A DNA stretch of 64,000 nucleotides from Parachlamydiales bacterium (GTDB lineage Bacteria > Chlamydiota > Chlamydiia > Chlamydiales > JAJFMK01): the NCBI GenBank assembly GCA_963765145.1, contig CAVXVG010000021.1, positions 128,001 through 192,000 on the forward strand. Direction: 5' to 3'. The stretch's first letter is position 1. Each line of letters opens with the position of its first letter. The notes beneath the pieces are model-generated. The model saw only the letters and a list, made by a program, of their open reading frames with translations. It did no database searches and was not told the DNA's origin. This document shows, one piece after another, positions 19,574-23,504 of the stretch. The position numbers were made by a program, and so were the translations under genes.

Positions 19574-22195
19574 TCATTCCTGTAGAATGGCGCCCAAGCT
19601 TTTTAGAACTGCGAGCTGACGTAGTTGTTCAATGGCATCAAGAATTTCTTTTGACTCTGGGTTGTTGGGACCTAAGCATTCATCCAGCATTGAAAGGGCT
19701 TTTAACGTGTAGGCCTGCCCCTGCTGATAGTCCCCTCTCATCGTATAAATGACACCTAATCTACCCATTGTTTGCGCGACAGAGACATTTTTTCCTCCAT
19801 AGTTCTTCTGTTCGATTCGAAGGCCTTTGAGTGTGTAAGCTAAGGCATCGTCGAGTTGAAGCGTCTCAATGTTAACGGCTCCTAAGTTACAATAAGGGGC
19901 TCCCAATCCACCATAGTCTGGTCCAAATTTATCTTCATAGATTCTGACCGCTTCTTTAAAAAGGGGAACAGCCTTTTGACTTTGGTTTAGGCCGATATAG
20001 CAGACAGCCACGTCATTAGAGCATTCAGCAATATCAGGATGATCTTCTGGAAGGATATTTTTTGTCATTTGATACGCTCGTTCAAGATAAGCGAGGGCTT
20101 GGCTGAATTGTTTTTGGGAACAATAGACTGCGCCTATGCAGCGGAGGCTCAAGGCCAGAGCGTGATCATCTTTTCCCCCCGCTAATTGCTCTGTGATTTT
20201 TAATCCTTTCTGATGGTATTCAAGGGCATTTTTATAATTGCCTAAAAGCAACTGTTGTTGCCCGGCCTGATGAAGGGTAAGGGCCTGAGTGCTCTCATTT
20301 GAAACTGTCTTGCCGCTTGCGACGAGAGCTTCGTGGGTACATTGGGCCGCTTTGATCCCGTTTCCAACGAGTGTATAGGCAAATGCCAGGTGGCTAAGGA
20401 CAGCTTCTTTTAGCTCTGTTATATCGGGATGCAGGGTGTCGAGCCGATCTTTTGCTTTCTCACACCATTCAACAGACTCCTTCCCCTTTTTTGCCTGGAT
20501 GTAGAAAACACCGATATTATAGATGGTTCTAGTACATTCCAAAGAGTTTGGACCAAACTCCTCCTGTTCTCTTTGTAGTTCCTCTTGCGAAAACTTTAAC
20601 GCTTTGGCCATGTCTAACTCTAAGCTGGAATAGAATGCGAAGAGTTTATTCAAAAACTTGTGCAGATCTTTTTTTATATAAGGGAGGAAAGCTTCTAGGT
20701 GTGAGACTAGCCTTTTTGCCTTTGGCCAGGCGGTTATTGGATCATCGGAATCAAAAAAGAGAAAATCGTTGTGAAAAACTGCCCAGACTTGAGCGATGAT
20801 CTCGTTTTTCAGTGCCGGTGTGGTAGACAAAGACTCCTGAACAGTTGCCTGAAATAGGCGGTGTGTTTCATAGGTACCCTCCTCTGTGCCTGGTGCGAGA
20901 AGACTGAATTTTTGGAAAAGATGGAGACGTTTTTGTAAAAGTAATGGAGTCGCCCCAACAAAGTCAAAAATTTCTGTAGGAATAGCCTCTGGGGCAATAA
21001 AAGCTGTTCTCCAAAGCAGTTTGGCCGATTCTCCAAGTCGTTTTTCCGACAGTTTCCAAGTGGTCATCAAGGTCGCTTGAGTCTTATCGGCTGAGGCTTC
21101 ATCTTTCCATAATTGGCCCCTGCACTCTAGAAACAGTTGATAATAGTCTTGATAAGAGGTTTTTGTTTCGCTTATATAACCTGCCGCTTGAGCAAGCCCA
21201 AGAGGTAAACACCCTAACTGTTCGACCAATTGCTGGCTCCAGCTGTCGCTCTCCTGACCTGTGATCTTCTCGAGGAGTTCTAACGATTCAGAGGGTGTGA
21301 TTGTAGACAGCACTAGGCTATTGGCAGAATGGGGATTGCGGCTGGTGATGATCGCATCTCCACCACGTTGAGGCAGATATAGAGAGCATTTGCTTGCGTC
21401 CTCAGCATTATCCAAAACGATGATCCAACCTGAATGGGTCTCAAACCAGCCTAGAACCTTTTCAAACACCTCCTCATTTGATGCTTTGAGACCGATGATC
21501 CCTATCTTTTCACCAAAGGCTCTGTAGGCTTTAGAGGGGTTGTCTGCTGACACCACCAAAGCAACCGGGTATTGGTTGCGGTGTCGCTTAGCATACTGAA
21601 GGGCAAGGAACGTTTTACCAACACCCCCAAGGCCGGCAAGCAAAACTTGATTGAGTTTGACCGTCGGATCTCCTTGCAGCATCTGACCGATCTTGCGCAA
21701 ATCACTCTCCCTTCCAACAAATGGAATAGAACTCTCCGGGATCATCCAGACAGATAGGGCGGGGACTGCAAGGCGAGTGTCTGGAAGGTCTAATCTTCTT
21801 TGCAAAGCAGCTGGCGCATCTGGCCCCATTGCAAATAAGGGATTTTCCGGCTCTTGAGTCCTTTTCGGTTGGGTGAAGGGTTGACCCCAAGGGGCTCTCT
21901 CCCCTTCTTTCCAAAGCGATTCGTGGCGGGATTGGCGCCCCCCTCCTCCCCTACCAAATGGGAGAAAACGGATAGAAGTTCCATCCCAATGGAACCGGAA
22001 GCGATTTTCCCTCAAAAGAGGAGCAATCTTGGCCTGGAATAGCTGGAAAGGGACCTGCTCCAAGCCCTTTACAGGAACACGGCCCATCCCATTGAAATAG
22101 CCTCTTACCTCACCATCAGGTTGAGCCCAAAGGGCAAAATGCCCCTGCCCATTTTTTTGATGGAAAACGCAAGGTAAAAAGGAAGAAAGGTTCAT
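19574..22195 (-). CDS. NB-ARC (STAND) ATPase with TPR repeats and an N-terminal GG-ending leader
   Basis: FVGRE, Walker A GLGGVGKT, Walker B IIVLDNA, ITSR, GCLPLGL, THRL and C-terminal kinesin-light-chain-type TPRs. Confidence 0.88.
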   Translation of the reverse strand: MNLSSFLPCVFHQKNGQGHFALWAQPDGEVRGYFNGMGRVPVKGLEQVPFQLFQAKIAPLLRENRFRFHWDGTSIRFLPFGRGGGGRQSRHESLWKEGERAPWGQPFTQPKRTQEPENPLFAMGPDAPAALQRRLDLPDTRLAVPALSVWMIPESSIPFVGRESDLRKIGQMLQGDPTVKLNQVLLAGLGGVGKTFLALQYAKRHRNQYPVALVVSADNPSKAYRAFGEKIGIIGLKASNEEVFEKVLGWFETHSGWIIVLDNAEDASKCSLYLPQRGGDAIITSRNPHSANSLVLSTITPSESLELLEKITGQESDSWSQQLVEQLGCLPLGLAQAAGYISETKTSYQDYYQLFLECRGQLWKDEASADKTQATLMTTWKLSEKRLGESAKLLWRTAFIAPEAIPTEIFDFVGATPLLLQKRLHLFQKFSLLAPGTEEGTYETHRLFQATVQESLSTTPALKNEIIAQVWAVFHNDFLFFDSDDPITAWPKAKRLVSHLEAFLPYIKKDLHKFLNKLFAFYSSLELDMAKALKFSQEELQREQEEFGPNSLECTRTIYNIGVFYIQAKKGKESVEWCEKAKDRLDTLHPDITELKEAVLSHLAFAYTLVGNGIKAAQCTHEALVASGKTVSNESTQALTLHQAGQQQLLLGNYKNALEYHQKGLKITEQLAGGKDDHALALSLRCIGAVYCSQKQFSQALAYLERAYQMTKNILPEDHPDIAECSNDVAVCYIGLNQSQKAVPLFKEAVRIYEDKFGPDYGGLGAPYCNLGAVNIETLQLDDALAYTLKGLRIEQKNYGGKNVSVAQTMGRLGVIYTMRGDYQQGQAYTLKALSMLDECLGPNNPESKEILDAIEQLRQLAVLKSLGAILQE

Positions 22196-22198
22196 CGA

Positions 22199-23504
22199 TC
22201 ACTTTCCTGCCTTTTCCCAACGTTCTAGAGTATCTTTAATGACCTGGAGGACCTGCGTGTCGGTTTCATTTCGTAGTTGTTCTTGTAAGGTTTGTTCTAT
22301 CAGGCGGCTCTCATCAGCAGTTCCAAAGTGTCCAAAGCTAAATGCATGGACTGCCGCGATCCGGATTCTCCAGCTGTTATTTTCCCCATCTTTTTGATCC
22401 TGCTTCGATAAATAGGTCTTTAAGAGAATCCTTGGCACGTATCTTTCGTGCTGTTGATCAGAGTTTTCTCCATATGATTTCCTAGCATTTTCACGTATGT
22501 AGACATCGCCATAAAGTTCACAAAACCCAACTGAGACATGCCAGCTCTCGTTATGTTCGAAATAGACTTTAAGCAGGCGAGCAGTTTCACGCGTGGCGTC
22601 GTGACGACTTGCTCGTATCATCAAAAGGGGCAGATACCAACTAGTCTCGGGAAGCGCTTGACCACGAAAAGAAAGTGCGACAGCCAGCTTATTTTGCGTC
22701 TGGACGATGTTCCTCAAACTTTTTTCGATCTCTTCTGAAGGCGAATATCCGAATTTCATCTTCTCACTGAAAAGCTTTCTTACAAGTTTTATTTCGAGGA
22801 TGTGGGGTGGCAGCCATCTATAGGCAAGCAGCCCCTGATTACAAGACTCCAAGCAAAAACGAAAATTATTCTCCGATAAAGTCTGGTCTGTTGAAGTCGG
22901 CATGACCGCCGCCACACCTTGCTTCAAGTTGAGGGCATCCTCGTAAGTGATCCGCGGACCAAAAACAATAGCGTAATCGAGAAAATGGTGGAGGTAGTGG
23001 GCTACTTGAAACTTTAGATTTAAGAGGAAATTCTTGCATTGCGTTTAAGGTTTCGATGAGATCACGGACAACACTAAAAGGTTGAGTGGGCAGCTTGCTA
23101 AAGATTTTGCTGAATTCCTCGATGAGTTGGTTAAACTTCGCACTATCATTGTTTTTTGCAGCTGCTTTTATGAGGGCTGTTTGCTGTTGCACTTCCTCAC
23201 TGCGCCGAGGGCCAAATAGGGACGAGGCGCCAGCGCCTCCCCCCTTCAAAGAGCCTGCAAATGAAAGTGAATCTGTGAAGGGGTCGGAAATGGGTTTAGC
23301 GTGGGCGAAATAATCACGAGCAGCCTCGATGTGCTCGGGAGATAGGTGAGAAGAAGGGAGCCCCTTGAGGGTATAATTTCTTCCATCCCCACTTTTTGCA
23401 GAGACTTGCCCGTCAGGCTGTCTAACAACCTCAATCGAACGGCCTTCGATTTGATAGGTTGCAAGGGGGAGGTGGGAATTAAAAAGGGGTATATTCAAAC
23501 TCAT
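22199..23504 (-). pseudogene. Helical/HEAT-like protein with N-terminal GG-ending leader, split by one +1 frameshift
   Basis: ORFs 22866-23504 and 22199-22927 join if one base is removed near 23020 (...NAMQEFPL/NLKFQVAHYLHHFLDY...); C-terminal HEAT-like SWRIRIAAVHAF. Confidence 0.65.

Follow-up and report, generated by a model that had tools for sequence, protein, structure and literature searches.

Why should a eukaryotic N-myristoylation consensus lie well inside the encoded chain of two neighbouring bacterial genes? This question is raised by a 64,000-nucleotide (nt) stretch of a Parachlamydiales bacterium, hereafter the window (G000:C21:128001-192000, G000 being the 2.68-Mb source genome, 85% complete). 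Here, two adjacent genes, A and B, encode unrelated bodies behind leaders that end in a double glycine (GG) and are directly followed by G-x-x-x-S. An earlier note on this DNA had proposed that the leader is removable and hides a lipid-anchor site; both genes, the motifs quoted for them and their positions, including the GG at the leader ends and the G-x-x-x-S after it, were all present in the sequence (Table 1), and the sequence comparisons below support that interpretation. The leader is probably a pro-domain that can be joined to varied cargo and is removed in trans, by a cut after LxGG that would expose a host N-myristoylation site, often suited to palmitoylation as well, or a Met-like end.

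Taken as a pair, leaders A and B were only weakly alike (BLASTP E 0.003 over 42 columns), and in a phmmer search of the genome neither retrieved the other. The similarity of the two N-termini asserted in the earlier note was thus slight in pairwise terms, but their homology follows from the fact that both belong to a family found by profiles; judged by these profiles, they are members of one previously undescribed domain family of 72-98 amino acids (aa). Iterative profiles over all reading frames recovered 12-13 copies in G000. The first seeds included residues after the GG; later profiles ended at the GG, and these returned an identical set of 13 copies with nothing further below E 0.1. All 13 were N-terminal and, where the start was intact, 72-98 aa long. 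The many paralogues that had been predicted were therefore found, as was the diverse cargo (STAND-TPR, U-box, OTU, LRR and ankyrin). A search of 1.84 billion representatives with the 13-sequence profile yielded 42 matches, 23 of which were new external leaders; 12 were excluded as G000's own or near-identical proteins, and seven (P0001, P0012, P0019, P0024, P0030, P0034 and P0040) were dropped as partial repeat matches. With four further leaders from another search and six in four other genomes of the phylum, the set comprised 46 leaders (13 from G000 and 33 external; 38 clusters at 50% identity), with a median identity of 26%. The end of the P0018 leader was placed by eye.

Two more copies were observed in gammaproteobacterial genomes, both of the same family (G482 and G487). 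The G482 copy begins a 1812-aa OTU protein of a Thiotrichales bacterium (HMMER E 2e-5 on fetched loci; hhalign 94.7%); it surfaced unprompted in an OTU-domain scan, on a contig that by eye carries ordinary gammaproteobacterial genes. The large proteins encoded at L058:5218-10656 (G482) and L097:11877-14435 (G487) are related, having the leader and then a hydrophobic stretch in common; the OTU domain was seen only in the G482 protein, that of G487 being scanned over 601 of its 853 residues. Scanning 2.07 of the 2.64 Mb of genome G001 at full sensitivity gave two strong copies, four weak copies and one orthologue found by synteny, which the profile had missed and which keeps GG, Gly at the first position after it (+1), Ser+5 and Lys+6 at 40% overall identity. 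Genome tallies with a leader (at least 2 of 41, 5 of 400, 1 of 129, 1 of 103, 1 of 4, 2 of 19 and 2 of 66) are lower bounds, since the same search tool missed the G482 copy later found by HMMER. No match was obtained when contig collections were scanned with P0046, A4 or A7 as the query, nothing was added by homologue searches for the short forms or the OTU domain, and plasmids yielded neither a leader nor a U-box cargo match.

Residues around the GG carry most of the argument. GG ended 44 of the 46 leaders, a figure inflated by retrieval profiles that scored it, and Leu stood at P4, four residues before the putative cut, in 31 out of 40. Following the GG of these 44 leaders, +1 was Gly in 22, Met in 11, Ala in 3, Val in 2, Ser in 2, and His, Cys, Ile or Leu in one each; the background, taken from [LIVMG]xGG in other long frames of G000 (n = 1481), was 17% for Gly and 3% for Met. 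One of Gly, Met, Ala, Ser, Thr, Val, Pro or Cys occupied +1 in 33 out of 36 cluster representatives (background 51%). The predicted enrichment of G-x-x-x-S was also borne out: Ser+5 was found in 18 of the 22 Gly-class leaders versus 2 of the 22 others, in 17 out of 21 versus 2 out of 15 cluster representatives, and in 7 out of 9 versus 2 out of 15 external representatives (Fisher p 0.003), the last having been retrieved with a profile that ended at the GG and was blind to the residues after it. The GG-bearing members in G000 had Gly+1 in 12 out of 12 and Ser+5 in 10 out of 12, whereas in the background Ser+5 accompanied Gly in 29 out of 257 cases; the pattern is therefore not due to chance.

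Moreover, Cys was present at +2 to +4 in 9 of the 22 Gly-class leaders (3% expected), and Lys or Arg at +6 in 11 (11% expected). When three later rows were included, the 49 leaders comprised 19 with Gly and Ser+5, 5 with Gly alone, 11 with Met, 12 with another residue and 2 without GG. Ser+5 was written with five different codons in 13 genes and the Gly codons were mixed, which places the constraint on the protein and ruled out a DNA-level cause such as a ribosome-binding or recombination motif. Synonymous change is saturated, positions +2 to +4 vary freely, and +1 and +5 are kept; indeed, the closest relatives of gene A (P0020 and P0022) retain Gly+1 and Ser+5 and vary in between. Substrates of N-myristoyltransferase have an N-terminal Gly, Ser or Thr at position 5 and often a basic residue next. 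This pattern is present after the GG, the Gly being still internal as encoded, so that the consensus could be used only after a cut. The Met class, the Cys and Lys/Arg enrichment, the two secretion systems and the GG-less copies described below go beyond the earlier note.

AlphaFold models of a chlamydial and a gammaproteobacterial leader (predicted local distance difference test, 86 and 90) both showed four strands, a helix and two strands (bbbb-a-bb), with the GG tail outside secondary structure and at low confidence. In these predicted folds, the order of elements differs from that of the ubiquitin beta-grasp (two strands, helix, three strands), so that the term 'ubiquitin-like', which had been applied to the GG site, suits the LxGG tail but not the predicted fold. 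Foldseek against PDB and viral sets returned nothing at E 0.001, and VIA-align gave best Z scores of 4.7 and 4.6, none at 5, with no ubiquitin-fold chain aligned in the top 50. The SAS-6/PAXX head domain recurred as a weak neighbour of both models (Z 4.3, root-mean-square deviation (rmsd) 3.2, 77 aligned; Z 4.4, rmsd 4.5, 82 aligned); this is not taken as evidence of kinship, as the scores tie with those of unrelated propeller fragments and are at background level. A PDB sequence search gave partial matches to argininosuccinate lyase only (best E 0.004), which were rejected, and of 37 leaders any single Pfam or NCBIfam family matched one at most. No alignment column held C, H, S, T, D, E or N in at least 40% of 40 leaders; with no catalytic-type residue conserved, the cut would have to come in trans.

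Cargo domains included NB-ARC or NACHT with TPR, TPR only, U-box with LRR, SP-RING, OTU and ankyrin, as well as helical domains without an assigned family. A protease domain was found in two cargos only, both OTU. By its domain content, the cargo is judged to be eukaryote-directed.

Two known arrangements are close to this one. In AvrPphB, ORF4 and NopT, effectors of the YopT cysteine protease family, an N-terminal pro-part likewise hides a P1' Gly and a P5' Ser, often with a Cys nearby, and its removal leads to host myristoylation and palmitoylation, as stated in the available part of the source (PMC2708883). The same embedded residues are present in the Gly class here, at the frequencies given above. 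However, the AvrPphB-type cargo is itself the protease and has a GDK-type site, whereas the leaders form a separate module of predicted fold, on unrelated and mostly non-protease cargo, with a GG site and a Met class; no AvrPphB/YopT-type Cys-His-Asp protease family (Pfam) was found on the leader cargos scanned. In Sde2, as in ubiquitin-fusion precursors, an N-terminal module is cut in trans after GG and the cut sets the first mature residue, according to the excerpted text of PMC9508853. Sde2 is eukaryotic, has the ubiquitin fold and a single cargo, and exposes Lys; the leader family is bacterial, with another predicted topology and many cargos, and would expose Gly or Met. The C-terminal LxGG is common to the leaders and to ubiquitin-like modifiers. 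By analogy, the family would act like both AvrPphB-type acylation and Sde2 or ubiquitin fusions, and belongs to neither.

In layout, the closest system is that of the Amoebophilus prodomains APD1 and APD2, constant N-terminal domains on effectors of this amoeba symbiont with OTU, U-box, STAND and repeat cargo, which come after a signal peptide and lipobox and are read as surface anchors in the accessible passages of PMC3482391 and PMC3417536. No lipobox-like pattern was found in the first 40 residues of the leaders (simple pattern, applied to rows with a clear start, which excluded 5 of 49), and the portion of PMC3482391 available on APD1/APD2 names no GG, cleavage or myristoylation. The two are set apart here by published descriptions rather than by sequence comparison, and homology, if true, would lower the novelty of the leader family. 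Within the open-access literature, to which the search was confined, the family was not described, nor did the available parts of PMC13720258, PMC4209131 and PMC11077975 describe it. Overall, on the sequence evidence the family is real and new to that literature, and appears to be a variant of cleavage-exposed acylation.

The mechanism we propose is as follows. The leader of 72-98 aa would be a portable, non-catalytic pro-domain on proteins presumably exported to the host; its last strand would end in an exposed LxGG tail, after whose second Gly a trans-acting protease would cut, thus defining the N-terminus of the cargo. In the Gly class, the cut would bare G-x-x-x-S-(K/R/S/T) for acylation by a eukaryotic N-myristoyltransferase, the frequent Cys at +2 to +4 being available for palmitate, and delivery would thus have to precede any docking of STAND-TPR or helical cargo on host membranes. 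Leaders of the other class would leave Met or a small residue as a normal stable end. For the protease, there is an even chance that it is a host deubiquitinase or ubiquitin-like protein (Ubl) protease; a co-delivered bacterial enzyme is a weaker candidate, and a bacterial protease acting before export is rather unlikely.

Several observations weigh against this mechanism, besides the inflated GG count. GG was absent at the site in 2 of the 46 leaders (1 of the 13 in G000; P0035), and also in the four weak G001 copies (E 0.009 to 4.5), which stand on TPR proteins and, used as seeds, retrieve the main family; the domain therefore persists without a cleavage site. Such copies are either decaying or keep a second job such as export. 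GG-less divergent leaders, all on TPR-containing proteins, were located at L104:12981, L125:8756, L141:15162 and L144:4596 in G001 and at C29:62480 in G000. In the Gly class, Ser+5 was absent in 4 out of 22 and in the gammaproteobacterial member, and 5 out of 22 carried at +2 a residue that we take to be disfavoured by N-myristoyltransferase. The G-x-x-x-S label was clustered on the leader tree (9 changes versus a shuffled mean of 15.2, 0 out of 500 as low) and was probably ancestral with losses; this tree has 85 columns and many open forks, and its starred branches force only two label changes. As the members are related and the samples not independent, p-values overstate. No protease tracks the family: USP-like genes (PF00443) were present in 5 out of 5 carriers, yet also in 92 of 151 phylum genomes, and OTU in 3 out of 5 carriers. 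The USP- and OTU-like enzymes of G000 are encoded at C21:9909, C21:244360, C18:71411-72684 and C26:257623. Moreover, most deubiquitinases would seem to have no obvious grip on the leader, because they bind the body of ubiquitin and the modelled fold is not that of ubiquitin. Searches for a C48 protease gave no match, nor did those for adenain C5, the latter being uninformative since the control was silent as well. The distribution of PF00443 in the phylum is far wider than a few named species; within the 151-genome sample, these genes were absent in family f35 (0 out of 27).

The GG-less copies on TPR proteins also speak for the alternative that survives best, namely that the leader stays uncut and works in export, chaperone binding or scaffolding, GG(G) being a flexible linker and the Ser-rich tail reflecting linker composition. 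Type III signals are rich in S/T/P/N and low in charge, as are residues 2-16 of the leaders (S/T/P/N 37% versus 24%; charged 10% versus 20%), and SctV was present in the carriers G000, G001 and G187, G000 having a strong SctV-family match and no DotH, in keeping with its placement in Chlamydiota. However, both gammaproteobacterial carrier genomes have DotH and no SctV, so the leader is not tied to one secretion machine, and an export role does not conflict with cleavage. A linker would leave unexplained why Ser is fixed at +5 only with Gly+1, against 12.5% at neighbouring positions, as well as the Cys enrichment, the quarter of GG leaders with Met+1 and the prevalence of Leu at P4. We consider an uncleaved module unlikely. 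A SctV-family gene of G001 (G001:C1:900487-902551) is split in two overlapping frames.

It is still less likely that the cut is real but serves to free an inhibitory cap or to set half-life by N-degron logic, with lipidation incidental and G-x-x-x-S an inherited passenger. Half of the GG members would expose a residue other than Gly, 21 of the 24 external representatives fall in N-end-rule classes that we take to be stabilising, much of the cargo is NLR-like, where autoinhibition is presumably usual, and Sde2 is activated by such a cut. This reading does not sit well with the drift at +2 to +4 between constant +1 and +5, nor with the Cys and Lys/Arg pattern, which suits dual acylation; it may well be right for the Met class alone.

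The double-glycine leaders handled by peptidase-containing ABC transporters are GG-terminated and removed in trans, and long leaders of this class exist. Removal by a C39 peptidase in type I export would fit the GG end with its hydrophobic P4, but is highly improbable here: no C39 peptidase was matched in G000 (85% complete; the search control matched in 7 out of 14), the protein cargo is large (up to 1899 aa) and bears a eukaryotic acylation signature, the residues before the GG were predicted as a strand rather than the helix presumed for that class, and by eye no transporter adjoined the eight listed G000 regions. Self-cleavage of the Hint, ZU5 or YopT-like kind, suggested by a small folded module directly before the site and by the AvrPphB-type precedent, is scarcely credible given a leader with no conserved catalytic-type column, Gly or Met rather than a nucleophile at +1, and the near absence of protease cargo.

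At the locus itself, genes A and B make up a unit of two genes 3' of a promoter-like site (7 sites were found in the region versus 4.1 expected), flanked by a CinA-like and a methyltransferase-like gene, so named by reading the translated open reading frames. Contigs from four peat metagenome runs aligned to the window and were 95-100% alike; no RNA run was listed as carrying it. The two genes do lie in tandem, as the earlier note had it, but gene A is frameshifted in the assembly and occupies two overlapping frames rather than one. The frame breaks between about 23045 and 22870, and both pieces match a single 487-aa relative, P0020. In three of the four runs, the contigs do not agree with the window in the break interval (one single-letter indel; two matching loose ends), so the break may have arisen in assembly or be peculiar to the strain. 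The body of gene A had no Pfam match; its helical domain also stands N-terminal to a STAND NTPase in the paralogue P0015. At P4, leader B has Gly rather than Leu, and Gly occurs four times in succession, which is why the cut register of this leader was taken from the family alignment.

Table 1. Features of genes A and B (window coordinates)
Feature	Position	Strand	Remarks
Sigma-70-like promoter match, 11/12	23608..23635	(-)	about 100 nt upstream of gene A; consensus match only
5' frame of gene A (212 aa in the annotation), with leader, junction and first part of helical body	22866..23504	(-)	matches P0020 residues 7-186, E 1e-17
Leader of gene A, 89 aa, ends LxGG	23238..23504	(-)	family profile E 5e-16
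Gene A residues +1 to +5 after GG: G-x-x-x-S, predicted cryptic N-myristoylation site	23223..23237	(-)	
Gene A 3' frame, 242 aa, remaining helical (HEAT-like) body	22199..22927	(-)	matches P0020 residues 208-403, E 7e-9
Gene B, 873 aa: leader, NB-ARC/STAND NTPase and TPR	19574..22195	(-)	begins 3 nt past gene A stop
Leader of gene B, 84 aa, ends in GG	21944..22195	(-)	family profile E 2e-14
Gene B residues +1 to +5 after GG: G-x-x-x-S, then Arg	21929..21943	(-)	
NB-ARC/AAA_16 NTPase region of gene B, residues about 158-354	21134..21724	(-)	AAA_16 E 4e-8; NB-ARC E 0.001
TPR region of gene B, residues about 551-761 in best stretches	19913..20545	(-)	TPR_12 E 1e-33

Leader genes were also observed in clusters, with four at G000:C26:65411-73058 (L002), one of them inverted, and three at G001:C1:438441-446778 (L101). 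In both, a gene with the helical domain and STAND is directly followed by a STAND gene, the order of genes A and B; such neighbours in L002 and L101 are possibly paired NLR-like proteins. Some family members were short or broken in the assemblies (G000 C7:34347, C25:17684, C26:68126 and C26:65411; G001 L101:16383), and as P0015, a database protein, runs on across the start of the C26:65411 gene, some of these breaks may be assembly errors. TPR or STAND-like frames without a leader match adjoin leader genes at G000 C21:67678-70020 and C25:21803-23203. A 1743-aa frame of G001 (L128:254-5482, minus strand) encodes TIR, STAND and TPR and has, about 95 residues in, LxGG followed by G-x-x-x-S with Cys; its leader had no match to the family (hhalign 2.9%), so it was rejected as a member and not counted, and a second leader type is possible. 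Elsewhere in the window, a 2800-aa protein (26769-35171, minus strand), 3 kb upstream of gene A, had only a weak DUF3638 match (E 3e-5) and looks like a giant host-directed protein, and the gene at 25834-26409 (plus strand) is an ordinary gamma-glutamylcyclotransferase/AIG2-like one.

Secreted effectors need their N-terminus for export, and host myristoylation needs a free N-terminal Gly; the solution known so far is a family of self-cutting proteases. A separate module serving any cargo would, if true, be a general solution, and the leaders would be an unrecognised class of substrates, lacking the ubiquitin fold, for GG-cutting proteases. We tentatively suggest that unrelated intracellular bacteria, type III chlamydiae and Dot/Icm gammaproteobacteria, may share a counterpart of the ubiquitin-fusion trick, in which a portable non-ubiquitin LxGG domain would be removed by a host or co-delivered deubiquitinase-type protease, and any cargo, such as NLR-like STAND-TPR proteins or E3 ligases, would gain only inside the host a programmed N-terminus, lipid-anchored with Gly or stable with Met. 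The leader would also allow effectors of uncultured symbionts to be recognised by sequence and, if the proposal is true, membrane-anchored bacterial NLR-like proteins would be at work inside eukaryotic cells.

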